Part shown: piece by piece, positions 2,036 to 64,000 of the stretch | Position numbering within the stretch: the stretch's first letter is position 1 | How the letters are laid out: the number at the start of each line of letters is the position of its first letter | Origin: Lytechinus pictus | Lineage: Eukaryota | Reading direction: 5' to 3' | Assembly: GCF_037042905.1 (NCBI RefSeq) | Contig: NC_087250.1 | Coordinates: 9,860,001-9,924,000 of the forward strand | DNA length: 64,000 bases | Notes under the pieces: generated by a model | The model's database searches: none | Seen by the model: the letters and a program-made list of their open reading frames with translations, nothing else | Told to the model about the DNA's origin: nothing | Position numbers and translations under genes: made by a program

Positions 2036-2140
2036 CGACTGCACATGTTGGTCCTTGAAACCTGGCTGAACAGGAGCAGGTGAAACCTTCCAGTGTTTCC
2101 GTGCATGTTCCTCCATTAAGACATGGGTTGGGTAAACAGT
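2036..2140 (-). CDS. Gene 1 EGF-like domain exon ([35 protein letters not shown])
   Basis: Six-Cys EGF spacing; 105-bp phase 1-1 exon bounded by tctcag and gtatgt. Its lectin exons would lie left of the window. Confidence 0.92.
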
Positions 2141-4585: not shown

Positions 4586-4640
4586 TCAAAAGCAAAAAGC
4601 TTGTTAGCACTAGAGATCTTCTAACGAAACCTCTCGTCAT
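4586..4640 (-). CDS. Gene 1 first coding exon, signal-peptide-like (MTRGFVRRSLVLTSFLLL, phase-1 end)
   Basis: ATG, basic n-region and hydrophobic run ending at a consensus GTAAGT donor; a pyrimidine-rich acceptor (ctcttgtttccag) lies 24 nt upstream of the ATG. Identical in all three copies. Confidence 0.65.
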
Positions 4641-13180: not shown

Positions 13181-13187
13181 ATATGAT

Positions 13188-17028: not shown

Positions 17029-17256
17029 TTAACCACATGAAACAGGGACCTTGCAGACAAAGGGATATTTTAAAAAACAGAATGTGTCTCGCCATCCCGA
17101 ACGTACTACCCAGTACATTGTGCAATATGGATTGGACAAGTCCAGTCCATATCCAGCAAGCCATTTGTTGTAGTTGAACGGTGTCCCATCTGTCCAAACA
17201 AAGGGACCAGGTAAGCTGGGTCGGTGAAGCCCGATCCAGTACCCGTTATCACCAAT
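17029..17256 (-). CDS. Gene 2 CTLD C-terminal exon (IGDNGYWIGLHRPSLPGPFVWTDGTPFNYNKWLAGYGLDLSNPYCTMYWVVRSGWRDTFCFLKYPFVCKVPVSCG*)
   Basis: Translated by hand; absent from the ORF track. WIGL, FVWTDG, YNKW, C..W.D..C and PFVCK motifs; tttccctacag acceptor, phase 0, fits the previous exon; 76 codons to TAA. Confidence 0.93.
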   Translation of the reverse strand: MGDNGYWIGLHRPSLPGPFVWTDGTPFNYNKWLAGYGLDLSNPYCTMYWVVRSGWRDTFCFLKYPFVCKVPVSCG

Positions 17257-17540
17257 CTGTAGGGAAATGACAGATAAAATACCAAAGTAGGCTTACATAT
17301 TTTCGATGAAATCTGGGCCCGTAGCAAAAAGAAAGTTTGAATGTATAACCACATTTGCTTTGATTTTTATGAAAAGCCTGCTGTACTTCTGCCAACAGTT
17401 TTCTCACTAAAAGGCGCCCATGGCTTCATTGTGACACTATCCAAAAGGCGCGTACACCAAAATAACCATTCGAAACCGCACAGAATGGGGCCAAGGCCTT
17501 GAACTTTCCACCCATTTGCATAATTGTTTAATCTTGTAAT

Positions 17541-19043: not shown

Positions 19044-19480
19044 CACCGGCGTAAATCCACTGTGAGGAGTGGGGAATGATTGACTTTTTTGACGATTTTA
19101 TTTTCTGTCGATCTGACACTTGGGTATAAACACACACTCTCACTGACCCCCACAGACCCCCTTACACACATTTTTATATTTATTTTGCGAGTGATTACAA
19201 TTTTCTAGTTTTTAATCGCTTTTCCTAACATAAATTCTAAAATATGAGCGAGCAAAGCGTGCAAGCCAAAAATAACCACCTTTTTTGTTTTCAATCGCAT
19301 TTTCAAATAGAAATTCTAAAATATGATGGTTGTTTATGACAGATATTCAAAGATTTTACTAACGGATTAATTAAAATATATTTTCTTTCTTAAAAAGTGG
19401 ATGGATATTTGTACACGCCATCCCCCCTCTCCAAAAAGTGGGGGGATGTATCCCCCGTCCCCCCGGGATTTACGCCAATG
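19044..19480. mobile_element. hAT-like non-autonomous element with an 8-bp TSD
   Basis: ctttgatt|caccggcgtaaatcc ... ggatttacgccaatg|ctttgatt. Confidence 0.85.
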
Positions 19481-20535: not shown

Positions 20536-21355
20536 CAGTGCGTCCCAGAATAAACGAAACCGAGATTTAGCGATGATTTATCATAACTTAATCATAAATA
20601 CAATATACAAATTACCTATCAATGTAAAGCTTAGAATCTCCTCTTTCATCTGATATTACTTAGATTATTTCTCATTCACGCATGAGTGAGCAAAAACAAT
20701 TTGAATAAAGGATACCAAAAACTCATTTGGCGGGGGGTATCTGAATTTCAAAAAGAAAATCACATGCCTAAAAAGTTCAATATCTGCTCTTTCATTTGAT
20801 ACCTTAATCACAAAAAATGGTCCAGAAGTAAAAAAGTTATGTTCCCTCGAAACAATGCTTGTATTTCCATAATTTCATTAAATAAACTTGTTTTCACCGG
20901 TTTCCCACAGAAGCTATCGCACGGTTAACAAAAGACTTAGTGCATGGCTGATCTTCAACAAAACGGAGTATCGAGTGAGTTTGAACGCTAGCCTGTAAAA
21001 CCTCTTCATCTTATGAAATTATTGAAATTCAAGCCTTATTTCAAATAACCAGAACTTTCTTATTTCTTGACCATTTTCTGTAATTGAGGTATCAAATTAA
21101 AGAGGAGATATTGAACTTTTTTAAAATGTGGTTTTCGTTTTGAAACCCAGATACAGCCCGCCAAATGACGTTTCGTTATCCCCTCTTCAAATTGTTTTTG
21201 CTCACTCATGCGTGAATGAAAAATGATCTAAGTAATTCCAGATGAAAGAGGAGATTCTAAGCTTTACAATGGTAGGTCATTTGTCTATTGTATTTGTGAT
21301 TAAGTTATGATAAATTATTGATAAATCTCGGTTTCGTTTTTTGTGGGAAGCACTG
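20536..21355. mobile_element. Tc1/mariner-type MITE with long (~300-bp) TIRs
   Basis: ta|cagtgcgtcccagaataaacgaaaccgagattt ... aaatctcggtttcgttttttgtgggaagcactg|ta. Confidence 0.88.
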
Positions 21356-21466
21356 TATATAATAATATACCAAGTATATTTCAGCGCCTTGAGCACATAA
21401 TCAATGTGGATTTGGCGCTTTATAAATACTCTATGTTATTATTATTATTATTATTATTAATAGCAT

Positions 21467-21580
21467 CAGTGGCGGACCGTGACTCGGAGGAGACAAAGCA
21501 ATGGAGGGGCCCTGTATTGTTTGCGAACAATGCTGTGCCCCTCCAATGCTTTGTCTCCTCCGGGTCACGGTCCGCCGCTG
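21467..21580. mobile_element. 114-bp fully palindromic hAT-like MITE with a perfect 8-bp TSD
   Basis: aatagcat|cagtggcggaccgtgac ... gtcacggtccgccgctg|aatagcat. Confidence 0.92.
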
Positions 21581-22447
21581 AATAGCATATTTTCACAATT
21601 TTTCAAGAACGTTTGTTGTTATTGTCACACACAATGCTGAACATTACAAAATGTGAGTAAATATATATGTGTATATATTAATGTTAAAATTATATCATAA
21701 AAATGTCAAAATAAGGATGTTTCTGATATTTTGTTAAACATCATTAAAAACATTGTAAAAACATTGCTAAAAATGTTTTGTTATAATATTTGAGAAACAT
21801 AAACATGGCCGTGGGGCGTTACTAAACCGAATGTAAGTAAAGGTGACAAAATAATTACAATTATATTACTGTATTTGCTTCGAGGGTCAATTCAGGGAAT
21901 ACTTGTTAAGGGTACAGTCTTATTTCCAATACTTGTTAGGGTACGGTTTCACACGCCAATACTTGTTAAGGGGTGTATTTTCAGAACATGGAAAATACTT
22001 GTTTAGGGTGCTTTTCGAAACCCAATGGACGTGCCTAGTATCCATTCGTCAATAGAAGTGCCCCCCCCCCCCCCCCGGATCGCCCCGGATAGGTCTAATG
22101 ATTCAAAAGGCTAAACAAAACAATTGCTGCATACCACACATTTAAGTTAGGGCCTTTTCACACGTAAATCTTGAATCATCATTGCAATGATGATTGCAAT
22201 TCGTCTTTAGAATCATCGGACCTTTCACACGGAAAATTCGTATCGTAATTTGAATGAAACCAAACTGGAATTCACCTCAGGAATAGAATTTGAATTCGTG
22301 AATGTGATTAGCGTTCGTGATTCTAGTTTGGTTCCAAACGTGCAAAAAAAATCGTCACTAGCCTTTTTTTTTTTACTGGAATCGTCGTTCAAATTACGAT
22401 TTTTTTTTTCCCTGAGAAAGGACGGTTAGTGACCTGAAAATACTCAC

Positions 22448-22635
22448 TAGCTTTCGCAATGTAGTTGTGAAATTTAGTTCCTCTTCACTATGGATAGAAA
22501 CCAGATCCCCACGACATGACTGTCCACTGGTGAAATTACGACAGGTATACATGGCGCCTGTAAAGCTTGCTAACTCGTAAAATGATTCGTAGCAACTTCT
22601 TTCAAAGAGTTTCCATGATGAATACGGGCAAAGAT
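22448..22635 (-). CDS. Gene 2 C-type lectin-like domain, N-terminal exon (DLCPYSSWKLFERSCYESF...CRNF...DLVSIHSEEELNF...RKL)
   Basis: Long-form CTLD motifs CP..W..F..SCY, A..C and LVSIHSEEE; cctgcag acceptor (phase 1, fits the EGF exon) and gtgagt donor (phase 0). Confidence 0.92.
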
Positions 22636-28505: not shown

Positions 28506-29261
28506 CCTAATTGTTTTATTCTCTCAGTAAAACCTTTACATAAAAAAAACAAATATAATACAAAGTTAAAATACATGTATTACAAATCAGTGTAAAAGAC
28601 AGTCTAAAAATTGCATTATGATTCAGAATCATACTGAAGTAGTAAATTGCGAGAATTTTATTATCCACATCTGCACTGATCGGTCGCCATGTATGCGAGA
28701 CGACGCGGCGCACTAGCTAGCTGTAGTCGTTTCCAACTTGGTCATTGCTTCCATATCATGCTTCGCTACGGACATTAAAGAAAGCCTTTCATTAACATGT
28801 TTTTAACTCAGAAATAATTTGAAGTCGAACACTAGTACTAAGTGGAACTAGTACAGGCACATGCGGGGCACATGTTTAATCTTCATTCCAGAGCGAGCTA
28901 CGCCGCGGAATTGAGGTCTAGTCGTGGCCACATGAATCGTAGAAATTGCATCTGCCAATTTTAGTAGACATGGGGGCAGCGGTAGCGCGCTTAGGGTGAT
29001 TAGCTGCAGTTGACGCTAGCTTGCAGCGAGCTGCCGCTAGCACGCAGCGGGCTGGGGATTAAATCTATAATCCGATGGATTTACAAGTATGGCAGCGAGC
29101 GGCAGCGGGCACAGGGGGAGCTGCGAGAGCGGATGTGAGTTCTATTGTGCCTTAATTATCGCAGCTAGCTGCCGCTGGCCGACGCTATTATCCCGTCTTA
29201 GAGCGTGCAGGGGTACGCTCGCCGGGTGCACGCTGCCAATGCAATATGGATCCTTTCCCTA

Positions 29262-32200
29262 TACAGGAAGATAATGAGAGAAACGTGGCTTGAAAATAAT
29301 GGTGATCCATCCGTTGGAGAGCAAGCTCTGGCAGACATGAAACAAAGTATCCTTCGTACTCAATATTTCAGCGAGATTGAATTAGAGAGAATAAAGGAAA
29401 ATGCCCAAAGTCTTTGTAGAGAACGAAAGCGTAATGCAACAAAGAATCAAGATGACAGGGGAAAACGAATAACAGATAAAGTAGACAAATTGCACGACAC
29501 TAACAATGATAGAGAGAGATCGGGAAAAGGAGAAAACTCGGTAATCACCAACACTGAGAAGGTGAGAAATTCTATCCATGATGAAGGAAGTACAGTTTCT
29601 GGAAATACAGTGAATATATTTCTTGACGAGGGGATTATATTCAACAATCAACAGGATGTTCGGACGCAGAGTGATAGGGGCTTACGAGATGGAGAACACA
29701 ACCAAAGAATATCACAGGAACAACGTATGAATCGTCTTGATATGGACAGTGCTCAGAAGAAAAGAAAGAAAAATGACTACATCGCTCAATTTGGGGCGTG
29801 TTCCTTGTCTCTTCTACAAAAACTAGATGAAATCGAAACGGTAGACACACATATTGAGGCCGAATACCAAAGAGGAGCACATTTCTTTCAGTACTGTGAC
29901 ACATCTGACAACAAGCCCGCTGGTGGAGAGGGAAAGGGATCAACGATGAACAGAAGAAAAAACAGCTCTTATAAGACTGGATTCTCTTCACATGTAGACA
30001 TACACCAACACTTGCAACAACCTAAAGTGAAATCTCGTACTCTTCGGGTTACAGCAATAGAAAAGGCTAAGAAAAGACAAGAAATTACTGAGACTGAACA
30101 TGGGGACGATGTTGCCCATTTTCTATGCGGTGGAGAGCCTCGCATTCAACAAGATAAAGAATGTGAAAGGAACGTATCGGGTAATATCAAATCATCTGTA
30201 CCCGAGAGAGATGCGATTGTATCACAAGACTCGACAAATGAAGACAGAGATTCCGATCAACGGCTGTTATCAGCACTGAGGAGCAACTTTGAATATGTGA
30301 AGGGAATATCAATATCAGATAGACCCCAAATTCCCAAGATCGACACAAGGTGCTGTACTACTAGGAGCGTGATCGACAAAGTAGATAAAATGCTTGAAAA
30401 GGTGCAATCTAGTCCTTCCAGTTTGTTGGAGATAAACTGTCTTATCTGGGCAGGAGCAAAAACTGTAACAGAACATATGGGACTCAAGCTTCATTCATCA
30501 AACCACTCTACCAATCATAAGAAGAAGGCTCCTGAATGGAAGAAAAGGCTACAAACCAAGATAGCAGAACTACATAAAGACGTGGCTCAACTCGGAGAAG
30601 TAGATAAGGGAAACATAAAATCCAATCGGATGAAGAGCAATGCCAAAAGACTTCAGAAGAAATATCGCATTGACGATAAGACCCGTACTAGGACAACTGT
30701 TATAGAAACGCTCAAAATGAAGATAAATGCTCTCAAACACCGTGTTAAGAGATACACAAAGAGTAACAATTTCAAACGGCAGAATAAACTCTTCCATGGA
30801 AACAGAAAGAAATTCTTTCGTGAGCTGGATTCAAAGATGACTGAGACGAAAGATGTTCCATCGGCAGATGATATGAAGAACTACTGGAAAGAACTTTGGG
30901 ATAATGATATCACTCACGAAGAAACTCCCTGGATTCAGTCGGAAGCAGACAAATGGTCCAATGTGCCAGCGCAGCAGCTAGTAGACCTGACCTTACCTGA
31001 ACTACAAAACTACAAAATACTAATCTACTGAAAATCATCAATGACATTATCAGAGGGAACAGGACTATTGAGAAATGGCTGCCAATTGGAAGGACCTATC
31101 TACTGTACAAAGGCAAAGACCCAAAACAACCTAAGAACTATCGTCCAATCACTTGCCTTAATACTATGTATAAGCTGCTGACATCAACGCTTGCCATGCA
31201 CATCGAACGACACATCGATGATCATGACATAATGGAGGTCACTCAGAAAGGTTGTCGAAAAGGAAAGAAGGGTTGTAAAGATCACCTAATGACAAACAAA
31301 GCAATAATCGGTAATGCTCGCCAAAGACAGACCAATCTATCCATGGCTTGGATAGACTACAGGAAGGCATTTGACAGCGTACCACATAGTTGGATCATCA
31401 AAGTTCTAGAGATGTATCACATCAATCCACAAATAGTCAAGTGCATATCAGCAGGCATGAAACAATGGAGCACTACTCTTTCGCTTACGATAGGCACCCG
31501 TTCGATGACAGTGGAGGGGGTCCGAATCAAGAGAGGAATATTTCAAGGAGATTCCTTATCTCCTCTTTTATTCTGCTTAGCTCTCAATCCAGTATGCTCT
31601 CTCTTACACGCTACGAGTTATGGCTACAGATACAAAGGGCAAGATGTATCTACGACAATAAACCATCTGATATATATGGATGATATCAAACTCTTTGCAA
31701 AAAATGACGATGAACTTCACAAGATGATAGCAGTAGTTAAACATTTCAGCGATGACATCAAGATGTCGTTTGGTATAGACAAGTGTGCCAAAGTTACACT
31801 TGTACGAGGAAGGAGGGTAAATACAGGCGACATGTTTGTGCAAGATGAGGAAACATCAATCAAGGAACTGACTAATGATTCGACATATAAATATCTAGGC
31901 ATAGCTGAGAACGATGTCATTAGCCATAACACAATGAAGGAGAAGGCAACATCAGAATACAAAAGAAGACTCGGGCTGATCCTTAAATCCGAACTGAATG
32001 CCAAAAATAAGATTGAAGCGATCAACACTCTAGCCATTCCTGTGCTTAGATACAGTTTTGGTATTGTTAACTGGAGACTAGCTGATATATATGTGGCCTA
32101 GATATTATGACCAGAAAGCAATTAACGATGCACAGATTACATCACCCAAAGGCCGCAATCGAAAGGTTGTACCTTCCCCGTGATCTTGGAGGAAGAGGTC

Positions 32201-33192
32201 TACAACAAATTGAGATGGTCTGGAATATGGAAGCAACGAACCTCGCCAACTACCTATCCAATCCACCTGATATACTGACGAGTATATCCCTCGATTATGA
32301 TAAATGTCAAGCAATATACTCCATTAACAAGCAAGCATCTATCTTATTGGCACAACATCGACTGACACTACCCTACGGTGAAAAAGAGAAGGCAAGACTT
32401 AAATGCTCCTTTCACAAGAAACTTCAAGAGCAACTTAAATCCAAGCGACTTCATGGCCACCATGAAAAACAGATGCATCGGGAGTTCGTAGACCAGAAAG
32501 ACACACATCAATGGCTTAAGTCGGCGGGACTAAGAGGTGAAACTGAAGGGTTCGTCTATGCTATTCAGGACCAGGTGGTGAGGACCCGTGCCTACGAAAA
32601 ATCTATCCTCAGAAGAGACACAGACGACACTTGCAGGATGTGTGGAAAAGAGACCGAAACAATCATGCATTTGGTATCAGCATGTTCGACTCTTGCTGGA
32701 ACTGAGTACATCACAAGACATGACAATATTGCCAAAGTTGTCCATTGGCAACTACTGAAGGATCGCGGTAAAATGACTTGTGATCACGCTTGGGAACATC
32801 AGCCACAAACGATCACCACGATCAATAACAGCACCATATATTGGAACTGTGGCATACTAACGGATAGAACCATCAACTGCAACAAGCCGGACATCATCGT
32901 CAGAGACAACAACGTAGTAAATATCATTGAGGTCTCTGTTCCCCATGATATCAACATTGCTGTAAAGGAAAGAGACAAACGGCTCAAGTATCAAGACCTA
33001 AGGATTGAGATCGAGAGGATGTGGAACGTGAAAGCAGAGGTCACACCAGTCATCATTGGTCACTCAGGAATGGTGAAGAAGGGAATGGAAGCCTGCATAA
33101 CCAAGATCTCTCCTCACCTTCGGATGTACGACATTCAGAAGGCAGCTATCTTGGGTACAACCAGATTGATAAGAAAGACTCTCGGACATTAG
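29262..33192 (+). pseudogene. Disrupted single ORF of the R4/Dong-like element (RT + zinc knuckle + RLE)
   Basis: Three ORF pieces (29205-31031, 31166-32101, 32107-33192). A frameshifting internal deletion is inferred near 31010-31020. Removing 2 bp from the AT run near 32085-32092 gives ADICGLDIMTRK in frame. Confidence 0.9.
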
Positions 33193-37044: not shown

Positions 37045-37149
37045 CGACTGCACATGTTGGTCCTTGAAACCTGGCTGAACAGGAGCAGGTGAAACCTTCC
37101 AGTGTTTCCGTGCATGTTCCTCCATTAAGACATGGGTTGGGTAAACAGT
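37045..37149 (-). CDS. Gene 2 EGF-like exon
   Basis: Same peptide as 2036-2140; bounded by tcccag and gtatgt; phase 1-1. Confidence 0.92.
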
Positions 37150-39595: not shown

Positions 39596-39650
39596 TCAAA
39601 AGCAAAAAGCTTGTTAGCACTAGAGATCTTCTAACGAAACCTCTCGTCAT
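39596..39650 (-). CDS. Gene 2 signal-peptide-like first coding exon
   Basis: Same sequence and splice sites as 4586-4640. Confidence 0.65.
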
Positions 39651-42704: not shown

Positions 42705-44279
42705 AACTTATATATTTTTTCTTGCCATCCAGGCTGAAAGCTGGCTCATTAAACATAAGGAGCGCGCAATTAAAACCAAACCATTCAATTTTTGGCCTCT
42801 CGTAGTTTTAACACTGGCTTAGACTATTCTATAACTTACACCCTACTTCGGAATACCGTCCAACCTTATATATTTTTCTTGCCATCCAGGCTGGAGGCTG
42901 GCTCATTAAACATAAGGAGCGCGCAATTAAAACCAAACCATTTAATTTTTGGCCTCTCATAGTTTTAACACTGGCTTAGACTATACTATAACTTACACCT
43001 TACTTCAGAATACCGTCCAACCTTATATATTTTTTCTTGCCATCCAGGCTGAAAGCTGGCTCTTTAAACATAAGGAGCGCGCAATTAAAACCAAACCATT
43101 CAATTTTTGGCCTCTCGTAGTTTTAACACTGGCTTAGACTATTCTATAACTTACACCCTACTTCGGAATACCGTCCAACCTTATATATTTTTCTTGCCAT
43201 CCAGGCTGGAGGCTGGCTCATTAAACATAAGGAGCGCGCAATTAAAACCAAACCATTTAATTTTTGGCCTCTCATAGTTTTAACACTGGCTTAGACTATA
43301 CTATAACTTACACCTTACTTCAGAATACCGTCCAACCTTATATATTTTTCTTGCCATCCAATCTGAAAGCTGGCTCATTAAACACAAGGAGCGCGCAATT
43401 AAAACCAAACCATTCAATTTTTGGCCTCTCGTAGTTTTAACACTGGCTTAGACTATTCTATAACTTACACCCTACTTCGGAATACCGTCCAACCTTATAT
43501 ATTTTTCTTGCCATCCAGGCTGGAGGCTGGCTCATTAAACATAAGGAGCGCGCAATTAAAACCAAACCATTTAATTTTTGGCCTCTCATAGTTTGAACAC
43601 TGGCTTAGACTATACTATAACTTACACCCTACTTCGGAATACCGTCCAACCTTATATATTTTTCTTGCCATCCAGGCTGGAGGCTGGCTCATTAAACATA
43701 AGGAGCGCGCAATTAAAACCAAACCATTTAATTTTTGGCCTCTCATAGTTTGAACACTGGCTTAGACTATACTATAACTTACACCTTACTTCAGAATACC
43801 GTCCAACCTTATATATTTTTTCTTGCCATCCAGGCTGAAAGCTGGCTCATTAAACATAAGGAGCGCGCAATTAAAACCAAACCATTCAATTTTTGGCCTC
43901 TCGTAGTTTTAACACTGGCTTAGACTATTCTATAACTTACACCCTACTTCGGAATACCGTCCAACCTTATATATTTTTCTTGCCATCCAGGCTGGAGGCT
44001 GGCTCATTAAACATAAGGAGCGCGCAATTAAAACCAAACCATTTAATTTTTGGCCTCTCATAGTTTTAACACTGGCTTAGACTATACTATAACTTACACC
44101 CTACTTCGGAATACCGTCCAACCTTATATATTTTCCCTTGCCATCCAGGCTGGAGGCTGGCTCATTAAACATAAGGAGCGCGCAATTAAAACCAAACCAT
44201 TTAATTGTTGGCCTCTCATAGTTTTAACACTGGCTTAGACTATACTATAACTTACACCCTACTTCGGAATACCGTCCAA
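42705..44279 (+). repeat. 157/158-bp tandem satellite, 10 units
   Basis: Same unit; 1575-bp span. Confidence 0.97.
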
Positions 44280-45387: not shown

Positions 45388-48300
45388 CCACTCCCGCACT
45401 ACCATTCACACATGCATGCACAGCATTATGATTGATCTGATCTTTAAACAAATGAGTAACTTTGAATAAATATTTGTTTCGAAAAAAACATTAAAGGACA
45501 AGTCCACTCCAACAAAAAGTTGATTTGAATAAAAAGAGAAAAATTCAACAAACAAAACATTGAAAATAGCATCATAATCGGATGTAAAATAAGAAAGTTA
45601 TTACATTTTAAAGTTTCGTTTAATTTTACAAAACAGTTATATGCTCATCCTGGTCAGTATGCAAATGAGGAGACTGATGACGTCATCCACTCACTATTTC
45701 TTTTGTATTTTATTATATGAAATATGAAATATTCTAATTTTCTCCTCATTGCCAAGTGAAACAACGATTAACTCCTCCCTGAACATGTGGAGTTAGCATT
45801 GTTTAACACTATATGGTTCAGTCAAGTTGGTCCTTGATATTATATATTGTATTGTATTGTAAATATTGTATAATTCAAACATAAAAAACAAAAGAAATAG
45901 TGAGTGATGAACATCATCGACTGACTCACCTAGTTGTGCATATCACTGTTTTGTGAAAAATAAGCGAAACTTTAAAATGTCATAACTTTCTTATTTTACA
46001 TCCGATTATGATGAAATTTTCAGTGTTGTGCTAGTTTTATTTTTCTCTATTTATTCAAATCAACATTTTTTGGGGGTGGACTTGACCTTTAACTTAGGAA
46101 TTAGATGGACAACTACACCTGGGTTTCCTTATTCATATAGTGCAGTGGGTTCTTAATGTGCAAAGGTGGTGACTTTCCTCGAGACAGGACCTCAAATTAA
46201 CGCCCTATCCGAGAGACGGTTTTCTTCGACTGTAACATAGCCAGCATCGATAGAACAGAAATGAAACGTATATTATTCAATCATGTATATTTTTGTTGTT
46301 TTTATATTTTTTGGTGACTTATGTTTTAAGGGGCTTGTTGAAAAATAGCCTGACGGTCAAGAGCTTTTTTACACCATATTGAAATTAACAAACAAACAAA
46401 TAAACAGAACTGGAGCTTTTTTTTTTCCTTGTGCTGATATATCCCTAGACACCTATAACAAACTTAGCACCTAAAAACACTCATAACATGCGTAACTGTA
46501 GGAACCGGTTTGTGCAACATCACCCAATAACAGGTAGGGGAGACCGGTGACAATTGTAACATGTGGCAAATGTAACAGAGGCTCTCACTAGTCCGGCAGC
46601 CCAGGAGATTTATTCAACCGGAAGCCGGACAAGCAAATGACCCCATAGCTGGATGGCATGGACCCTGAAATTTACAAAAATGCATTGCTGCCGGGTTTTA
46701 TCCGTGGTCTTCCCGCCTAAATGATCTATAACGTCACTACAAAATGGCCCTATTTCACCATTTTTTTGACATTCTACACATCGCATGAAGTCAAGGTGGA
46801 ATAGCTCAGCCAAACCATACTTGTTTTGTATGAAACTTACAAAATATATTGTTCAAGTATTCAAAAGAGACATGCAAAATTTCACGAACAGGAATTATTG
46901 TTTACATATGCAAATTACGTCATGAAATTTGCATATCATTAATTTTTGAGATTTTTTGCATCAAAAATTGTCGAAAATCGATTTAGAAATTTATTTTCTT
47001 TTTTAGTGTACTTTTTTTGATATATTTCCTGTCAAGCATAATATCGTTCTCTTTATCTATATCTATACTTTTAGAAAATATATGTCAGTAATTGGAAAAG
47101 GCATTATAGACTGTGATTTCAACCCCCTTTTCAATATGGTGCGTATATAGAAATCCCGCGTTTTGGGCCTATTTTCACCATTTAGCTGAGGTGTGCGAAC
47201 GATATGCCCACTTTATCGATGTTTCCTGCATTTTGCATGATATTAAATCTTCGAAACAACATATTTTCATCTTAATTATGTCTCTGCTGATAAATAAATG
47301 ATTTCAGCAAAGATTGATTGCCCACTGGGCAGTCTATAGGTTACGTTTTCAGCCTAGTTTTCGACGACGAACCTATACCATGTATGACTGCATTATTGTA
47401 GTCAAGTCGGAAATGGGAGTTCCTGTGCACCATCAAAATATACTTTTAAATCAACGTTTTTGTATTGCCTGAAGTGTCTAGTTAATGAATCTTGATGTTT
47501 TCTTTGCAAAATCGTGTCCCACTGGGTTCAAATTGATATTTCTGGCGGCCCTTTTGGATTTTTTTCAATGAAAATTCATTATTTTCATATTTTTGTGCAG
47601 AGAGTGTGACAATAGGACAATCTCACATGAATACGCATTTTACTATGATTCGGATAGTAGAAATCGGTTGAAATCGTTTTCTGGACAGACCTGCTAATAT
47701 ATTTTGAAATAAATAAAAATATACCCCGAAATTGTCATGCTTTTGGTCCAAAATTTGCATGTGCATTAATATCTATCTGCTCAGTCATTAACATCAACAA
47801 CTATTGCAAAATATCAGCATTCGACACGAAAGAGGATATATTATACCAAGAATACTGAAACGCTTCGTGACAGTATAAATGAATGTCTTAATTTGCTTAG
47901 TTAAAGGGAAAATACCATGTATTACTCGTTATTGCGATAAAATGACACAAAAAAGCAACCTCTGTGTCATAGGCACACATGCAAGAGCCCGAGGAAGGTC
48001 CCCTTTCCCTATCAGTAGCTTGTCTAAAAAATGTAATTTTTTGAGCCCCCAATGTGACAAGATGGTGGTTCCTTTATGTAGAAAAACAACTCTTATTTTA
48101 TTGAAATCACTTGGAGACAAAACAGTAGGCTCTTCTCTATCAGCTACATTATAAAGAAGTGAGGGCACAGCAAAGCCTACCCCCCCCCCCCCCCTTACGG
48201 GACCGCCAAAGTCCCCCATCCTTTTTTCGTATTTTGCCCATTTCTTGGAAAATTCGCAATTTTTGTAGCCCCCTTGAAGGGAAAAAACGTTTCTGCTTTG

Positions 48301-51300
48301 CAGTCAAGTCACCTTTATTGTTTTTAACCACTTGGAGATAAAATAATAGACTTTCCTCTATCTGCTACATATAGGGAAGTGCTGACACAGCGAAGCCTAA
48401 GCCTAAACCCTCAGGGTGCTGCCGAAGTCACTCACCCTTTTTTTTTGTATTTTACCTATTTATGGGAAAATATGCCATTTTGGAGCCCCCATTGAGGCAG
48501 AAAGCGTTTCTGCTAGGTAAAAATGCCACTTTTATTGTTTAAAACTATATGGAGACAAAAGAATAAAGTTTCCTCTATCTGCTACATATAAAGAAGTGCT
48601 GATACAGCAAAGCCTATCCCCTCTGGGGACTGTCGAAGTTACCCACCCTTTTTTTATATTTTACCTATTTGTGGGAAAATATGCCATTTTTGGAGCCCCC
48701 ATTGAGACAAAAAGCGTTTCTGCTATGTAGTAAGGCCACTTTTATTGTTTTTAAACTATATGATGGAGCGTTGTGGCCCAGTGGATAAGTCTTCTGACAT
48801 TGAAACATTCTGCTGCACTCGACCCAGGTAAGGTGAATGGGAAACCCGGCAGGATTAATTCCTTGAATGCACGAGCGCTGAAAGGCAGCTCGAGCTAAAG
48901 ACGGGGTAATAATAATAATAACAACGCGCCTCGGAATAGAATATTTCTGGATAGATGGCGATTTATTGCGATGCCGTTGGGATGAAAGTATATTTCAGGT
49001 GGAATTTTCTTTGAAGAAAAAAAAGTTATATTCGTGCCAAATGTATTCTACTGTCTGTTATTATACTTTGGAACATCGTTTAATAGAAATATATAAATAT
49101 CAAATCTATGATTTATATTACATTTTCTATCATGATATGTCACTACTGAAAACCTATGTTTGTGTTGAAAAGTAACTAACAAAAATATGAAATGTTGTGT
49201 CAAGTTTTTATTTTTATTTGTCTAAAATATGAAGATGTTTGGGGAAAAATGACACATAAATATTGTTCAGCTCTCGATGAAAAAGCAAAGTGATAAAGGG
49301 GCATGATATACTCATTTGATTGATATCAAATTCGTCATGATAGCACAAATATTTTATAAGATACAGTATAATCTTATGATGTTTGGCAAGTGTCAACTTT
49401 TCCCTGGGTGTATGTAAATTTTTGGCCTCATGACAGCGTGCAAAGCCTTGCATATAAATGTAAAAAAAAAAATACTTTTACACCTCGAAAACAAAGAAAA
49501 CAAAGCAAATGTTTGGTTGCAGTATTCCGTGATATATTCTAAGGGTGAAACACTCCATGAAATTTACAAACCAATTCTCCATAAGATTACAATCGACAAT
49601 TGTTCACTGCCAAATATTTGTAAAAACATCACAATTCGAAATAATCAATTTACAGTGTTCAGAAAGGATTGTAACATATATATAAAAGGCGTAGAAATGG
49701 ATAAAACTTCAATAGGCCGCTTCCTGAGAACAACAAGGGGAGCCCGGGCTTAAAATCTCACAAGTACATACACTTGATAGAACTTCCCCTACCAAGGCGG
49801 GGAAAACATGTCCAGTGTCCCAGACTATATTATCTCGCAATACTGCATACAAACGTCACCTACTGGCTGGCTCAGTGACTTTGTCAAATTCGAGCAGGCT
49901 GGCAAATCACAACCCAGCATTCAAACCACCGATATAATAATGGGTGTGACGTAATTATGAAAAGTGGGCAGCTCTCCGATAAACCAATCGCTGATCGGCC
50001 ACATGGTTTTCGTCAACGAGAAAGCCACAAATGTTGAGGATATAAATCCACAGGTGAGAGGAAACTCACTGAGGTTCGAGCCATTATCCATATCAGAATT
50101 TTTCGGTATGGCCTTAATAGAGATCTCTCTTGGCTGGACAAAATTATATATTTTTTTACAAATAATTTCAGGAATATTTCATGAGGTAATCAGCAATAAT
50201 CATCTTACTAGGCTATCAATTTACTTTTAGGTATTATTATTCTTTTTTGTCTAGCACACATTTAATTCTCCTCCAAACATATTGACACTTGATTTCAAGA
50301 TAAAGTAATATTAGAGTTCATTGTCACCTCATTTTATCCTGAATTAGTCTCATAAGAGGCCTTTATCGATTACCTTATTCTTTTAATGCATATTCATGAG
50401 TCCAGGACGAAGCTGCTGTTTTGATACACCAATTTTCGACAAAGACTTTATAGGTTAATCTTTGTCACGAATGGGATTCGATAATACATGTTCAATGTTC
50501 TTGAAAGAGTTCTTCGTCGCAGCGCAACAACTTGATAAAGAGATAGGGGTATTGTTGATGAGATATTGCTTGAGTATCGTCTGGGATGGTTTTGCGTCAT
50601 GCAAAAGATGTGGAGCGTCGTGGCCTAGTGGATTAGTCTCCGGAATTTGAAACAGAGGGCCGTGGGTTCAAATCCCAGCCATGGCGTAATTTCCTTCAGC
50701 AAGGAATTTATCCAGTGTGCTGCACTCGACCAAGGTGAGGCACCTGCTTAGCCGGGTAATAAAGATAGCAGGGCCCGCTGGGAGAACAGTTTTCGAAACT
50801 GAAGTGGCTACCCTGGGTAAAAATACCGTTATTATTATTATTATTATCATACAGATCGAGCTTGTCTTGGTGTATACATATTGTAATCCTACCGAGTCTG
50901 GCCCGAATGCCTCTGGAAAGCAGACGGCACAAAAAAATAAGCATTTTATTTCAGAGACTCAAGGATGCAGGGAAGGGCATGGGCAATATCACAGAATATT
51001 AACACAGTGACCAAACAAAATCAATTCAATTCAATTCTTTATTCCATTTCCATTCAAAACACAATACAAAGTAATATAAATCAGATACAATTTTAGAGAT
51101 GAGCATCCTTACTTCGTAAACAAAAAAAATCACAATGTCTTCCCTTTGAAGTAAATAGAAAACAATAATAATGTTTGTAACTAATCATTTATATTGGGAT
51201 TTATTCATTATTTAGTCCATATAAGGGCTCCGTAACACAAAGGTTTGAACTCAATCGCTAAATACCAATGACCAATCAAGATCTTCGTTGCACGCGCACT

Positions 51301-52614
51301 TTGTTTAAAATACTGACCGGGAACGTTCGGTGCGGTTCTTTCATACATGCAATTCATCGCAAGCCTTTGTGTTACGGAGCCCTGAACATATTAATCTTGA
51401 CTCAATGCAATGTCAAAACCTTAATCTGCACCTGCCCCAAATTTAGTGCCGCCCTGTTTCCATGGCAATGTACCGGTGCGTTGTTACGTACACCTGGAAT
51501 CCAAGCAACATGGGCATGATGGGGAAGCTACGAACTGAAGCAGAGGTTCAAGGTTCGAGCCCTGTGTCCCGTTACTCAAAGGTTACTGATTAATCGTACG
51601 CTTGATTTTTACTATGGATTGTACATCGTATTCAATGCAATACTTAATAACATAATAATTATATACAATTGTTATACAATAATGGCTTAGCCAATATATA
51701 CATACGCAATGGCAGTCATAAAGATACATGTTATATACAATAACCAATGTTACATAGTAATAATGAAAACATATAATGTCATTGTTGGTTTCGTCTGTAA
51801 TCTGATTGCGCCACACCAGTGCATACAGGGGGCACCTTGGGGGCGTTTGCCCCCCCCCCCCAAAAAAAAAAGTTTTCACCATCAAGACAAAAAAAGCGAT
51901 ATAATGTAAAGAAAGGAAAGAGATGGGTGAAATGTATGTATAATATCATTTTCTGAATATTAAGTCAAAATCTATCACTATATTGGATTTTTGTAACAAA
52001 AAATATCGAAAGTTTTGTTCGTCTCTTCGCTCGCTCGCAACATTCTTTTGATTTTTCCCGGTACACCATATTTGGCACCTAAATTCCTTTGGCTCATTAA
52101 ACTACTGAGTCGAGCTGAGTGATTTGTTGAAAATAACATTATCTCCTTACGTTTCGTGTCCATGAATATTCATGAGGCGTACTGACTAAATAAGCCCCAT
52201 GATATCATAGCTATGTCAATCGTGTCGGTACCGAATTGAAGCCATTTTAGTCTTTCCCCGGATGAATAGCATTTCGGACTTTTCGCAATTATTACGGGGA
52301 AACTCTCTACAACGCACCAATCTCTTTGAAATTTAAGTCAAACAACAATTGAGAGCAGAGAGGCTTTTTCCGAAAGTTGGTGGACCGGGACAGTATCGAA
52401 TGTTGGTGGACCGGGACAGTATCGGAATATCTTGACTCTGGACAACGACATATTTGCAATCGTTCGCCCGGTGCAAATCGTCGGATGATCTGCTGTACCA
52501 GTCCACCATCTTTCGACAAAAGCTACTCAGCTCTCCATTGTGATTTTAATTGCATTTCCAAAGGAATCAATGCGTTGTAGAGAGTTTCCCTGTAGTAAAT
52601 GCGAAAAGTCCCTA

Positions 52615-52845
52615 TTAACCACATGAAACAGGGACCTTGCAGACAAAGGGATATCTAAAAGAACAGGGTGTGGCTTGCCATCCCGAAGGTATTCCCCCGT
52701 ACATTGTGTAATATGCATCGGACAAGTCCCGCAGTCCATATCCAGCAAGCCATTTGTTGTAGTTGAACGGTGTACCATCTGTCCAAACAAAGGGACCAGG
52801 TAAGCTGGGTCGGTGAAGCCCGATCCAGTATCCATTATCACCAAT
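52615..52845 (-). CDS. Gene 3 CTLD C-terminal exon (IGDNGYWIGLHRPSLPGPFVWTDGTPFNYNKWLAGYGLRDLSDAYYTMYGGIPSGWQATPCSFRYPFVCKVPVSCG*)
   Basis: Translated by hand; open frame of 77 codons with the same acceptor and stop as the gene 2 exon. Confidence 0.92.
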   Translation of the reverse strand: MGDNGYWIGLHRPSLPGPFVWTDGTPFNYNKWLAGYGLRDLSDAYYTMYGGIPSGWQATPCSFRYPFVCKVPVSCG

Positions 52846-53347
52846 CTGTAGGGAAATGACAGATAAAAAACCAAAGTAGGCTTAAATTTTTTCGATGAAA
52901 TCTGGGCCCGTAGCAAAAAGAGGGTTTGAATGTATAACCACATTTGCTTTGATTTTTATGAAAAGCCTGATGTCTATGAGAGATCGCCCCGGATAGGTCT
53001 AATGATTCAAAAGGCTAAACAAAACAATTGCTGCATACCATACATTTAAGTTAGGGCCTTTTCACACGTAAATCTTGAATCAGCATTGCAATGATGATTG
53101 CAATTCGTCTTTAGAATCATCGGACCTTTCACACGGAAAATTCGTATCGTAATTTGAATGAAACCTAACTGGAATTCACCTCCGGAATAGAATTTGAATT
53201 CGTGAATGTGATTAGCGTTCGTGATTCTAGTTTGGTTCCACACGTGCAAAAAAATCGTCACTAGCCTTTTTTTTTTACTGGAATCGTCGTTCAAATTAAG
53301 ATTTTTTTACCGTGAGAAAGGACGGTTAGTGACCTGAAAATACTCAC

Positions 53348-53535
53348 TAGCTTTCGCAATGTAGTTGTGAAATTTAGTTCCTCTTCACTATGGATAGAAA
53401 CCAGATCCCCACGACATGACTGTCCACTGGTGAAATTACGACAGGTATACATGGCGCTTGTAAAGCTGGCTAACTCGTAAAAGTGTTGGTAGCAACTTCT
53501 TTCAAAGAGTTTCCATGATGAATACGGGCAAAGAT
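53348..53535 (-). CDS. Gene 3 CTLD N-terminal exon
   Basis: Paralog of 22448-22635 with ES>QH and G>S changes; splice sites intact. Confidence 0.92.
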
Positions 53536-55720: not shown

Positions 55721-55825
55721 CGACTGCACATGTTGGTCCTTGAAACCTGGCTGAACAAGAGCAGGTGAAACCTTCCAGTGTTTCCGTGCATGTTCCTCCA
55801 TTAAGACATGGGTTGGGTAAACAGT
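55721..55825 (-). CDS. Gene 3 EGF-like exon
   Basis: Same peptide, with one synonymous change (TCC>TCT); splice sites intact. Confidence 0.92.
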
Positions 55826-58273: not shown

Positions 58274-58328
58274 TCAAAAGCAAAAAGCTTGTTAGCACTA
58301 GAGATCTTCTAACGAAACCTCTCGTCAT
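58274..58328 (-). CDS. Gene 3 signal-peptide-like first coding exon
   Basis: Same sequence and splice sites as 4586-4640. Confidence 0.65.
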
Positions 58329-61372: not shown

Positions 61373-64000
61373 AACTTATATATTTTTTCTTGCCATCCAG
61401 GCTGAAAGCTGGCTCATTAAACATAAGGAGCGCGCAATTAAAACCAAACCATTCAATTTTTGGCCTCTTATAGTTTTAACACTGGCTTAGACTATTCTAT
61501 AACTTACACCCTACTTCGGAATACCGTCCAACCTTATATATTTTTCTTGCCATCCAGGCTGGAGGCTGGCTCATTAAACATAAGGAGCGCGCAATTAAAA
61601 CCAAACCATTTAATTTTTGGCCTCTCATAGTTTTAACACTGGCTTAGACTATACTATAACTTACACCTTACTTCAGAATACCGTCCAACCTTATATATTT
61701 TTTCTTGCCATCCAGGCTGAAAGCTGGCTCTTTAAACATAAGGAGCGCGCAATTAAAACCAAACCATTCAATTTTTGGCCTCTCGTAGTTTTAACACTGG
61801 CTTAGACTATTCTATAACTTACACCCTACTTCGGAATACCGTCCAACCTTATATATTTTTCTTGCCATCCAGGCTGGAGGCTGGCTCATTAAACATAAGG
61901 AGCGCGCAATTAAAACCAAACCATTTAATTTTTGGCCTCTCATAGTTTTAACACTGGCTTAGACTATACTATAACTTACACCTTACTTCAGAATACCGTC
62001 CAACCTTATATATTTTTCTTGCCATCCAATCTGAAAGCTGGCTCATTAAACACAAGGAGCGCGCAATTAAAACCAAACCATTCAATTTTTGGCCTCTCGT
62101 AGTTTTAACACTGGCTTAGACTATTCTATAACTTACACCCTACTTCGGAATACCGTCCAACCTTATATATTTTTCTTGCCATCCAGGCTGGAGGCTGGCT
62201 CATTAAACATAAGGAGCGCGCAATTAAAACCAAACCATTTAATTTTTGGCCTCTCATAGTTTGAACACTGGCTTAGACTATACTATAACTTACACCCTAC
62301 TTCGGAATACCGTCCAACCTTATATATTTTTCTTGCCATCCAGGCTGGAGGCTGGCTCATTAAACATAAGGAGCGCGCAATTAAAACCAAACCATTTAAT
62401 TTTTGGCCTCTCATAGTTTTAACACTGGCTTAGACTATACTATAACTTACACCTTACTTCAGAATACCGTCCAACCTTATATATTTTTTCTTGCCATCCA
62501 GGCTGAAAGCTGGCTCATTAAACATAAGGAGCGCGCAATTAAAACCAAACCATTCAATTTTTGGCCTCTCTTAGTTTTAACACTGGCTTAGACTATTCTA
62601 TAACTTACACCCTACTTAGGAATACCGTCCAACCTTATATATTTTTCTTGCCATCCAGGCTGGAGGCTGGCTCATTAAACATAAGGAGCGCGCAATTAAA
62701 ACCAAACCATTTAATTTTTGGCCTCTCATAGTTTTAACACTGGCTTAGACTATACTATAACTTACACCTTACTTCAGAATACCGTCCAACCTTATATATT
62801 TTTTCTTGCCATCCAGGCTGAAAGCTGGCTCTTTAAACATAAGGAGCGCGCAATTAAAACCAAACCATTCAATTTTTGGCCTCTCGTAGTTTTAACACTG
62901 GCTTAGACTATTCTATAACTTACACCCTACTTCGGAATACCGTCCAACCTTATATATTTTTCTTGCCATCCAGGCTGGAGGCTGGCTCATTAAACATAAG
63001 GAGCGCGCAATTAAAACCAAACCATTTAATTTTTGGCCTCTCATAGTTTTAACACTGGCTTAGACTATACTATAACTTACACCTTACTTCAGAATACCGT
63101 CCAACCTTATATATTTTTCTTGCCATCCAATCTGAAAGCTGGCTCATTAAACACAAGGAGCGCGCAATTAAAACCAAACCATTCAATTTTTGGCCTCTCG
63201 TAGTTTTAACACTGGCTTAGACTATTCTATAACTTACACCCTACTTCGGAATACCGTCCAACCTTATATATTTTTCTTGCCATCCAGGCTGGAGGCTGGC
63301 TCATTAAACATAAGGAGCGCGCAATTAAAACCAAACCATTTAATTTTTGGCCTCTCATAGTTTGAACACTGGCTTAGACTATACTATAACTTACACCCTA
63401 CTTCGGAATACCGTCCAACCTTATATATTTTTCTTGCCATCCAGGCTGGAGGCTGGCTCATTAAACATAAGGAGCGCGCAATTAAAACCAAACCATTTAA
63501 TTTTTGGCCTCTCATAGTTTTAACACTGGCTTAGACTATACTATAACTTACACCTTACTTCAGAATACCGTCCAACCTTATATATTTTTTCTTGCCATCC
63601 AGGCTGAAAGCTGGCTCATTAAACATAAGGAGCGCGCAATTAAAACCAAACCATTCAATTTTTGGCCTCTCTTAGTTTTAACACTGGCTTAGACTATTCT
63701 ATAACTTACACCCTACTTCGGAATACCGTCCAACCTTATATATTTTTCTTGCCATCCAGGCTGGAGGCTGGCTCATTAAACATAAGGAGCGCGCAATTAA
63801 AACCAAACCATTTAATTTTTGGCCTCTCATAGTTTTAACACTGGCTTAGACTATACTATAACTTACACCCTACTTCGGAATACCGTCCAACCTTATATAT
63901 TTTCCCTTGCCATCCAGGCTGGAGGCTGGCTCATTAAACATAAGGAGCGCGCAATTAAAACCAAACCATTTAATTGTTGGCCTCTCATAGTTTTAACACT
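61373..64000 (+). repeat. 157/158-bp tandem satellite, about 17 units
   Basis: Same unit; the terminal variant (taattgttgg) appears at the window edge. Confidence 0.97.

Follow-up and report, generated by a model that had tools for sequence, protein, structure and literature searches.

A tandem CTLD gene array in Lytechinus pictus with a homogenized scaffold and a binding face probably diversified by positive selection

How do neighboring gene copies come to share nearly all of their coding sequence and yet differ, within one short stretch, by changes that all alter the protein? The question is raised by two CTLD genes, hereafter gene 2 and gene 3, in a 64,000-nucleotide stretch of the Lytechinus pictus genome (the window), which takes in roughly two and a half of the repeat units in a tandem array of ten genes. 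The gene models and the two variable segments are as follows.

2036..2140, minus strand: gene 1 (paralog p7), exon 2, EGF
4586..4640, minus strand: gene 1, exon 1, signal peptide
17029..17256, minus strand: gene 2, exon 4, C-terminal half of the CTLD and stop
17068..17145, minus strand: variable segment of gene 2 (paralog p8, type A), 26 codons, translating to LDLSNPYCTMYWVVRSGWRDTFCFLK
22448..22635, minus strand: gene 2, exon 3, N-terminal half of the CTLD
37045..37149, minus strand: gene 2, exon 2, EGF
39596..39650, minus strand: gene 2, exon 1, signal peptide
52615..52845, minus strand: gene 3, exon 4, C-terminal half of the CTLD and TAA stop (Pfam Lectin_C, AG acceptor)
52654..52734, minus strand: variable segment of gene 3 (paralog p9, type B), 27 codons, translating to LRDLSDAYYTMYGGIPSGWQATPCSFR
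53348..53535, minus strand: gene 3, exon 3, N-terminal half of the CTLD (CAG acceptor and GTGAGT donor kept in 10/10 paralogs)
55721..55825, minus strand: gene 3, exon 2, EGF-like domain, phase 1-1 (Pfam EGF, splice sites)
58274..58328, minus strand: gene 3, exon 1, ATG and signal-peptide-like MTRGFVRRSLVLTSFLLL, GTAAGT donor in phase 1 (signal peptide judged by eye)

The array comprises ten copies on one strand of contig C6 (9.70-9.94 Mb, 235 kb). All ten have four exons, for a signal peptide, an EGF domain and a CTLD spread over two exons, and encode a protein of about 192 aa with a signal peptide, one EGF domain and one long-form CTLD, which is presumably secreted. The ATG, open frame, length and donor of exon 1 are kept in all ten copies and in two paralogs on contig C21, and the EGF domain has its six cysteines throughout the array. 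For gene 3, the last exon alone matches Pfam Lectin_C (PF00059) at 30.8 bits (E 5.3e-7, cut-off 22.6, profile positions 38-106 of 107), and exon 2 matches Pfam EGF (PF00008) at 34.3 bits (cut-off 21.5). Contigs of runs guessed to be RNA stop at three predicted splice sites of this gene (52845, 53348 and 55721), which lends weak support to its being transcribed. Eleven sequencing runs contained sampled words of the stretch at shares of 0.10 or less; contigs from four of them (X1, X8, X9 and X2) were mostly intronic repeats, and no listed piece reached the variable segment. In a Pfam scan of the 146 stop-to-stop ORFs between 44.2 and 61.8 kb, no matches but those of the Lectin_C and EGF exons passed the cut-off; matches to PUL and SSSPR-51 in the same ORFs fell below it and were disregarded. 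An alternative reading of the last exon was rejected, the other two frames containing stops or no CTLD.

Amino-acid identity among the ten copies is 81-100%, and the next paralog stands at 51%. Nine copies have an open frame and intact splice sites. The remaining one, gene 1, whose CTLD exons lie outside the window, carries a CGA>TGA nonsense codon in the last exon, within the variable segment. That segment comes in two types. Type A (WVV...FCFL, four copies) is hydrophobic or aromatic and keeps Cys C2, and type B (GGIP/PGIR...PCSF, six copies) has lost this cysteine and falls into several subtypes. The A/B mismatch within the segment is 17%.

The earlier note had described genes 2 and 3 as differing by 14 changes in 13 codons, every one non-synonymous, together with one codon indel, and this was matched by the nucleotide alignment, the codon table and Nei-Gojobori counts alike; both of its readings of the segment agree with the translations given above. 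Two of the 14 nucleotide differences fall in a single TTC/CCC codon, all 14 alter an amino acid, and the indel is a single in-frame 3-nt one (CGG, Arg), with Nd = 14.0 and Sd = 0.0 over 60.8 non-synonymous and 17.2 synonymous sites. The range first given for the variation, 52636-52735, does enclose the variable stretch but also takes in 18 invariant bases (YPFVCK) on its 3' side. Alignment also confirmed the constant ends of the exon: codons 1-38 differ at three positions (+11, +14 and +71 of the exon), all synonymously, and the final 12 codons and the stop are the same in both genes.

The chance of finding no synonymous change among 14 is P = 0.031. Set against the remaining coding sequence, the segment has 14 non-synonymous (N) and 0 synonymous (S) changes versus 4 N : 6 S after rounding (Fisher p = 0.0016), with dN of 0.275 and none of 17.2 synonymous sites changed, versus dN 0.013 and dS 0.061 in the rest. 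Fourteen changes in 78 nt are also more than expected from the 4.5-6.1% divergence seen in the neighboring intron, in the flank downstream and at synonymous sites (Poisson p = 1.9e-5 to 4.3e-4), a comparison that is weaker than it appears because the flanks are partly homogenized.

The segment was placed in the fold by alignment to solved CTLDs (60 PDB CTLD sequences matched at E <= 0.01) and to 17 canonical paralogs in the same genome. It starts just after the EPN position, runs through beta3 with Cys C2 and through the WND position, and ends just beyond Cys C3. Both sets of alignments agree with its earlier assignment to the long loop and beta3-beta4 binding face. At the level of sequence they support its being the canonical CTLD binding face, which presumably binds a ligand. 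A predicted fold of the last exon alone, from a 24-row alignment, had a mean pLDDT of 47.7 and a pTM of 0.32, too low to use.

The canonical EPN/WND paralogs (contigs C16, C21, C17 and C19) have the same exon structure, with the CTLD split at the same place, and share with the array the WIGL motif, Cys C3 and C4 and a C-terminal ...SC(G/D) tail. In the array, YWIGLH and the cysteines C1 (MYTC), C3 and C4 are present in all ten copies. Most canonical paralogs retain EPN (or something close to it), the Glu preceding C2, Cys C2 and WND, whereas the array has diverged at each of these. The EPN/QPD position reads YGL in 10/10 copies, versus EPN, EPS, LPD, YPD and similar in the outgroup. The Glu two residues before Cys C2, a calcium site 2 ligand, has become Pro or Ala. 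Cys C2, present in 17/17 aligned outgroup paralogs, is retained in the four type-A copies, whereas the six of type B have Tyr there. The WND position is WRD in the type-A copies (W*D in p7), WQD in one other copy and WQA, WRA or WEA in the remaining five. Judged by these motifs (EPN/QPD, WND and the Glu), the array family appears to lack what calcium-dependent carbohydrate recognition requires, and the lost residues sit where the variation lies. The word 'lectin' in the earlier description of the genes as lectin paralogs is doubtful, given the loss of the calcium-sugar residues.

Minimum counts over the ten copies are 23 N : 1 S in the segment and 16 N : 11 S in the other 146 codons (Fisher p = 0.0025); parsimony on three trees gives 25-29 N : 1 S and 16-18 N : 13-15 S, respectively. 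Neutral drift predicts about 22% synonymous changes, and the probability of at most one among 24 is P = 0.02. Under M0, omega is 9.2-9.4 (p = 0.002) in the segment, whose 27-codon boundaries were chosen post hoc, after the data had been seen, and 0.38-0.42 elsewhere (p = 0.015-0.026), with 0.08 for the EGF domain and 0.27 for the constant parts of the last exon. The localized diversifying selection proposed in the earlier note is thus supported by the larger set of sequences, in which segment omega lies significantly above 1. It stays above 1 once multi-nucleotide codons are dropped (p = 0.001) and once CpG codons are dropped as well (p = 0.005). For the whole last exon and the CTLD-N exon, omega is 1.46 (p = 0.36) and 1.43 (p = 0.64), neither of them significant. 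At the synonymous rate of the family, 6.9 non-synonymous changes would be expected in the segment at omega = 1, against at least 23 found (p = 9e-7), a comparison confounded by homogenization.

The M2a versus M1a site-model comparison gives 2dlnL of 21.5 (p = 2e-5; 3.5e-7 on another tree), and 2.2 (p = 0.33) without codons 51, 146 and 156, each of which differs by two or more nucleotides and may reflect multi-nucleotide mutation events; recombination among copies breaks the single-tree assumption of every codon model used. Codons 146, 153 and 156 each take three to four states among the ten copies. Codon 51 (M2a posterior 0.999) belongs to a second, smaller hot spot in the other CTLD exon:

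53456..53488, minus strand: QHFYELASFTS in gene 3, alignment codons 50-60, with 8 N and 1 S among the ten paralogs

The A/B split is what prompted the finding, and the type-B copies on their own provide the sole comparison that does not depend on it. Within them, segment omega is 3.75, not significantly above 1 (p = 0.13; count test, p = 0.15), versus 0.34 elsewhere, and the counts are 13 N : 1 S in the segment versus 14 N : 10 S in the rest (Fisher p = 0.03).

Gene conversion or crossing-over has made mosaics of the flanks of the segment, which occupies +111..+191 of the exon. The junctions adjoin it: +71..+126 in p2, +190..+239 in p3 and p7, and +275..+320 in p4. Relationships on the two sides of the exon disagree, and A/B chimeras inside the segment are absent, three sites of p2 excepted.

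Taken together, the locus is probably best explained as a tandem CTLD array with a homogenized scaffold and a 27-codon binding face diversified by positive selection. Unequal crossing-over and gene conversion would hold the introns, UTRs, EGF domain and CTLD scaffold nearly uniform. Amino-acid-changing substitutions would have been fixed repeatedly in a single 27-codon stretch that spans the end of the long loop, beta3, the beta3-beta4 hairpin, beta4 and the loop around Cys C3, the outcome being two sharply distinct binding-site types, A and B. Since the EPN, Glu and Asn calcium/sugar ligands are lost, the site most likely binds proteins or other ligands without calcium. Positive selection may diversify it to track a variable partner, most likely microbes or parasites in humoral immune recognition; gamete or self/non-self recognition would be less likely. 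Change that is almost solely non-synonymous on a nearly constant scaffold commonly marks selection for new binding specificities and is seen in immune, venom and fertilization proteins. There is also a minor possibility that the array serves as a specificity locus for recognition, as in allorecognition or gamete compatibility, with the A and B cassettes and their subtypes actively kept apart by selection. Cassette A would then carry a C2-C3 disulfide and a hydrophobic loop, and cassette B a free Cys C3; concerted evolution would erase other differences between copies, and conversion tracts would end at the cassette edges. If so, copy number and type make-up would differ between individuals and set compatibility.

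Explanations that do without positive selection fare less well. The loop could have drifted neutrally (omega about 1) after the calcium-sugar site was lost while conversion kept the rest uniform, the run of non-synonymous changes being chance aided by multi-nucleotide and CpG mutations. The loss of the EPN and WND ligands and of Cys C2 would fit such drift, as would the nonsense codon within the segment of one copy, but the other nine copies keep their frames and splice sites. CpG transitions account for three of the changes (CGA>CAA, CGA>TGA and CGG>TGG), the site-model signal hangs on three multi-nucleotide codons, and omega among type-B copies alone is not significantly above 1. The likelihood-ratio test nonetheless rejects omega = 1 when multi-nucleotide and CpG codons are left out (p = 0.001-0.005), and drift on its own fits poorly with one synonymous change in 24 where about 22% are predicted (p = 0.02), with none in 14 in the focal pair (p = 0.03) and with the excess of non-synonymous changes over expectation, confounded as the latter is by homogenization. 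We therefore regard relaxed constraint as unlikely.

An old split between A and B, with everything but the segment homogenized since, with the A/B mismatch blocking conversion tracts and with no continuing positive selection, should have left synonymous divergence within the segment, whereas none of the 17.2 synonymous sites differs between A and B. Two older CTLD pairs of the same genome serve as controls: across the homologous segment, L012/L014 show 17.2 N : 7.8 S and L014/L019 show 26.2 N : 8.8 S, so that 17-26 non-synonymous differences come with about 8-9 synonymous ones. The clustering of conversion or crossover junctions at both segment edges, the conflicting flank relationships and the near absence of chimeras speak for such an old island, but the segment varies within type B too, and we find this reading very unlikely. 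Still more improbable, to an extreme degree, is that one type is an import from a distant paralog or that the array was mis-assembled. The array is highly repetitive, its units being 95-99% identical over kilobases; however, when either type was searched as DNA against all 812 Mb of the assembly, 10/10 matches lay in the array and no donor appeared elsewhere, and the nearest paralog outside it is distant in protein sequence. Type A recurs in four units (three identical over the 101 bases searched, one at 98%) and type B in six units with differing flanks. A conversion tract from a distant paralog, a concern raised in the earlier note, is likewise countered by the restriction of the segment to the ten array copies and by the lack of synonymous divergence between genes 2 and 3. 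Two further candidates were rejected: targeted mutagenesis of the DGR type, with no template repeat and no adenine bias, and a cassette library for templated conversion, with only ten copies in existence.

The array offers an unusually clean natural case in which an animal CTLD family keeps its scaffold constant while the binding face varies, and its history can be read within one 235-kb array. Concerted evolution and diversification are seen side by side, with conversion junctions adjoining the selected segment. It also defines a short set of residues for A/B swaps, chiefly codons 146, 153 and 156 together with 51 in the other exon, by which to learn what a calcium-independent invertebrate CTLD recognizes.

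In a database of 5.8 billion proteins, a search for close relatives gave three candidates, none at E <= 1e-8, and a broader search gave six matches among 18 candidates, the best at 38% identity and none a close relative; all six are mannose-receptor-like proteins of echinoderms and bivalves. Open-access keyword searches of the literature turned up no description of a signal peptide-EGF-CTLD array of this kind. We show no new mechanism: tandem CTLD families whose loops have diversified locally are already known among venom, natural-killer-cell receptor and fertilization proteins.

The natural-killer-cell receptor CTLDs of the Ly49/KLR type (group V) are calcium-independent and form tandem clusters that evolve as copies duplicate, exchange sequence by gene conversion and diversify on the ligand face. 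They are vertebrate type II membrane receptors with a short long-loop region, whereas the array protein, with its signal peptide, EGF domain and CTLD, is predicted to be secreted. The variable proteins of diversity-generating retroelements (Mtd, TvpA) have a C-type-lectin fold in which the C-terminal region, the part that varies in the array too, bears massive variation on a constant scaffold. There the variation arises by adenine-specific retro-mutagenesis in phage and bacteria, whereas the 14 differences between genes 2 and 3 take in all base types and the array has no template repeat, a pattern that points to selection rather than targeted mutation. The snaclecs of snake venom are like the array in their CTLD scaffold without a calcium-sugar site and in being multigene, secreted and subject to fast amino-acid change; as vertebrate proteins they differ in being loop-swapped heterodimers that lack an EGF domain, and there is no sign of a venom context here.

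Positive selection is reported for venom C-type lectins (for example PMC4552096, PMC3701607). Among invertebrates, the sperm M7 lysin of Mytilus is described as a C-type lectin of gamete recognition with a signal of positive selection (PMC9951329, citing Riginos & McDonald 2003). M7 lysin keeps the QPD sugar motif that the array family is without, and the passage concerned describes neither a ten-copy array nor an EGF domain (PMC9951329). A hypervariable multigene CTL family tied to immunity, the 'Rlecs' of the prawn Macrobrachium nipponense, varies, as the relevant passage describes it, by the number of 30/33-bp coding tandem repeats (PMC7536079), whereas the array varies by point substitutions in the binding loop.

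The window (G000:C6:9860001-9924000) is eukaryotic DNA made up of large direct repeats, 93-99% identical to one another. On the minus strand, 52600-52860 encodes ...IGDNGYWIGLHRPSLPGPFVWTDGTPFNYNKWLAGYGLRDLSDAYYTMYGGIPSGWQATPCSFRYPFVCKVPVSCG and then two stop codons; this is the final coding exon of gene 3, and no comparable product comes from the remaining two frames of this interval. Within the window tblastn finds a single close copy of this peptide (17032-17271, 83% identical). Among 146 ORFs searched with Pfam, two profiles alone pass the cut-off: Lectin_C in this same exon, and EGF in another that lies 3 kb upstream. Searches of the 812-Mb assembly with the peptides of three exons and a single DNA stretch as queries located every exon in ten copies (p1 to p10), all on the minus strand of contig C6 at 9.70-9.94 Mb, genes 1, 2 and 3 being p7, p8 and p9. 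Splice sites were fixed from alignments of the ten copies.

Exons of the array genes (all minus strand)
Exon 1, gene 3 58274-58328, gene 2 39596-39650: ATG, MTRGFVRRSLVLTSFLLL, one base, then GTAAGT
Exon 2, gene 3 55721-55825, gene 2 37045-37149: EGF, phase 1-1
Exon 3, gene 3 53348-53535, gene 2 22448-22635: N-terminal half of the C-type lectin-like domain (CTLD)
Exon 4, gene 3 52615-52845, gene 2 17029-17256: C-terminal half of the CTLD and TAA
Gene 1 (p7), within the window only exon 1 (4586-4640) and exon 2 (2036-2140)

Contig C21 carries two distant paralogs that likewise keep the ATG, frame, length and donor of exon 1. The array product would be a signal peptide-EGF-CTLD protein of ~192 aa, probably secreted, given the appearance of exon 1. 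In runs whose RNA nature is a guess, contigs match precisely up to 52845, 53348 and 55721, beyond which their letters are unmatched, as in spliced transcripts, which hints that gene 3 or a close paralog is transcribed. Exon 3 (gene 3 53348-53535, minus strand) carries an RGD tripeptide (QSCRGDLVSIHS) directly preceded by an extra cysteine, both kept in 10/10 copies, and the C-terminal tail of the family (...VSCG) brings a further extra Cys.

The earlier note had singled out a stretch of the last exon in which all substitutions between genes 2 and 3 alter the protein, set between constant ends. Alignment and the codon table bear this out: the 27-codon segment (gene 3 52654-52734, gene 2 17068-17145, minus strand) holds 14 differences in 13 codons, all amino-acid-changing, and one indel of 3 nt (CGG); the first 38 codons of exon 4 hold three differences, all synonymous, and the last 12 codons plus the stop none. 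By the Nei-Gojobori method the segment has Nd 14.0, Sd 0.0 and dN 0.275, with 0 of 17.2 synonymous sites changed, and the coding sequence outside it has dN 0.013 and dS 0.061; the non-synonymous to synonymous (N:S) counts are 14:0 in the segment versus 4:6 in the rest (p = 0.0016).

Two forms of the segment occur in the array. Type A, reading LDLSNPYCTMYWVVRSGWRDTFCFLK in the last exon, is found in four copies (p5, p6, p7 and p8) and type B in the other six (p1-p4, p9 and p10), which also differ among themselves in the segment (R/W/gap, D/N, T/R, G/P, P/R, Q/R/E, A/D, P/T and R/K). Copy p7 (last exon L010, G000:C6:9846480-9846704, outside the window) is type A with Y>F in addition, and its codon 153, in the position equivalent to WND, has become a stop (CGA>TGA); it is likely a recent pseudogene, with its stop inside the segment. 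Over the ten copies the segment needs a minimum of 23 N, the nonsense change included, and 1 S, against 16 N and 11 S in the other 146 codons, where the EGF exon accounts for 1 N and 4 S. Three or four states are present at codons 146 (W/G/P), 153 (R/Q/E/stop) and 156 (F/P/T). On three alternative trees, parsimony assigns 25-29 N : 1 S to the segment versus 16-18 N : 13-15 S to the remaining codons, and the maximum of a sliding window falls exactly on the segment. A second, smaller cluster (8 N : 1 S among ten copies) occupies exon 3 codons 50-60 (gene 3 53456-53488, gene 2 22556-22588, minus strand), which read CY[Q/K/E][H/K/S]F...[A/S]...[S/G]; by motif position it belongs to beta1 and the start of alpha1, apart from the main segment.

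The segment was placed in the fold with two sets of alignments, one made by HMMER to CTLDs of solved structure (yolk-sac IgY receptor, PLA2R, mannose receptor) and one to the genome's own canonical paralogs.

Canonical CTLD motifs and their counterparts in the array family
EPN: YGL, directly before the segment
Glu two residues before Cys C2: codon 140 (P/A)
Cys C2: codon 142, Cys in type A and Tyr in type B
WND: W-[R/Q/E]-[D/A], codons 152-154
Cys C3: codon 157

In the established anatomy of CTLDs, the mapped positions are the calcium site 2 and sugar ligands, and they fall in the terminal part of the long loop, in beta3, in the hairpin joining beta3 to beta4, and in beta4 itself. At least four of five site-2 ligands are thus lost, and the family is not a canonical calcium-dependent lectin. 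Since type A and 17/17 aligned outgroup paralogs keep Cys C2, type B has lost it secondarily, which leaves Cys C3 without its usual partner; the CTLD has 7 cysteines in type B and 8 in type A. The predicted fold of the last exon alone, half of an intron-split CTLD, is poor (pLDDT 47.7).

Codon likelihoods were computed with our own Goldman-Yang code (F3x4 frequencies, optimised branch lengths), with M0 fitted per partition and likelihood-ratio tests (LRT) against omega = 1; recombination among copies breaks the single-tree assumption of all codon models used.

Selection by partition
Segment: omega 9.2-9.4, LRT p = 0.002
Rest of coding sequence: omega 0.38-0.42, LRT p = 0.015-0.026
EGF exon: omega 0.08, LRT p = 0.007
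Last exon, constant parts: omega 0.27, LRT p = 0.036
Segment without multi-nucleotide codons 146 and 156: zero synonymous changes remain, LRT p = 0.001
Segment without codons 146 and 156 and CpG codons 135 and 153: zero synonymous changes remain, LRT p = 0.005

The ten-copy counts (23:1 versus 16:11) give a Fisher p of 0.0025, and the probability of at most 1 synonymous change of 24 is 0.02, for a segment whose boundaries were chosen after the fact; omega is 1.46 over the whole last exon (p = 0.36) and 1.43 over exon 3 (p = 0.64). A window-free site model (M2a vs M1a) returns 2dlnL 21.5 (p = 2e-5; 3.5e-7 on another tree), with omega2 15.3 at 4.2% of sites and posteriors > 0.98 at codons 51, 146, 153 and 156. 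Without codons 51, 146 and 156 these values become 2dlnL 2.2 and p = 0.33, and because all three are multi-nucleotide differences, the site-model signal is inseparable from multi-nucleotide mutation. The six type-B copies alone, a set in which the A/B contrast behind the finding plays no part, have omega 3.75 in the segment (p = 0.13) and 0.34 elsewhere, with counts of 13:1 versus 14:10 (Fisher p = 0.03) and a probability of 0.15 for at most 1 synonymous change of 14. The direction is the same, and omega > 1 is without independent significance.

Localized diversifying selection, as proposed in the earlier note, remains the best-supported reading, with omega at 9.2-9.4 in the segment versus 0.38-0.42 in the rest. 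Positive selection probably acts on a putative calcium-independent binding face of this presumably secreted EGF-CTLD family, and concerted evolution would form the background on which that face diversifies. We regard a relaxed loop drifting neutrally as unlikely; the tests against omega = 1 that bear on it are significant for the segment over ten copies and not so within type B.

The history of the array bears on the age of the two types. Flank distances among copies conflict between the two sides of exon 4. Upstream, a ~4.7-kb insertion (about 5 kb) in the CTLD intron (gene 2 17384-22078), whose ORFs all fall short of 110 aa, is common to the four type-A copies and p2; the remaining type-B copies are without it. 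Downstream, p3 and p4 (type B) lie ~1% from type A and p9 4.3%, and p2 and p9 are 0.1% apart. We mapped site by site which copy matches gene 2 (A-like) or gene 3 (B-like), the segment being +111 to +191. In p2 an A-like stretch gives way to a B-like one between +71 and +126; in p3 a B-like stretch turns A-like between +190 and +239; p4 switches between +275 and +320, and p7 has a B-like tract from +239 to +412. The array has therefore been shuffled by conversion or crossing-over, with tract ends adjoining the segment. Such ends fit selection holding the types apart, and also fit a 17% segment mismatch simply halting heteroduplex formation. The Poisson comparison of segment and flank divergence (p = 2e-5 to 4e-4; 9e-7 tree-wide) overstates the case because the flanks are homogenised. 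The internal argument that survives is that an old divergence island should carry synonymous differences too, and the segment has 0/17.2. In the homologous segment, older CTLD pairs elsewhere in the genome differ by 17-26 N and by ~8-9 S as well. That types A and B form an old island no longer under selection is thus quite improbable. Least credible of all is an imported tract or an artefact: the earlier note had raised a tract from a distant paralog, and DNA searches with the type A or type B segment matched the ten array copies and nothing else, which excludes an outside donor for this assembly.

Young pairs in some other CTLD clusters lean the same way. In one on another contig (L022, L023 and L028; G000:C17, about 11.86-12.33 Mb), the pair L022/L028 differs by 6 N : 0 S within the homologous segment, compared with 1 : 0 beyond it. 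Diversification focused on the loop may be a general trait of the CTLD arrays in this genome.

The units also differ in their repeats. A 157-bp satellite lies ~3 kb upstream of exon 1 in each of the three genes (7686-8472, 42707-44279 and 61375-64000). Its copies number 5.0, 10.0 and, where it runs off the window, at least 16.7, so that copy number varies between units otherwise 99% identical. Three consecutive long ORFs (29202-33189, plus strand) in the gene 2 intron between the EGF and CTLD-N exons look like a non-LTR retrotransposon: RVT_1, a reverse-transcriptase domain, is found in one of them (E 2.4e-30), and another weakly matches zf-RVT; the three belong to ~11 kb absent from the gene 3 unit. 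A 217-bp tandem repeat (12416-13185 and 48192-48754; 2.6-3.6 copies, 79% matches) lies downstream of the last exon of the lectin genes, where the two units are least alike (88%).

By likeness to other expanded invertebrate CTL families, immune recognition would be the most likely role of the array proteins, and gamete or self/non-self recognition a possible one. The protein database searched held no close relative of them, and our literature searches found no description of such an array, which does not prove its absence. Positive selection or hypervariability of CTLD proteins is documented for snake-venom lectins and the Mytilus M7 lysin (PMC9951329), the variability of a prawn CTL family arises from coding tandem repeats (PMC7536079), and EGF-CTLD combinations are known from vertebrate groups (PMC514892). 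The mechanism is not new, and the locus adds a new, very clean example to the known positive selection and hypervariability of CTLDs.
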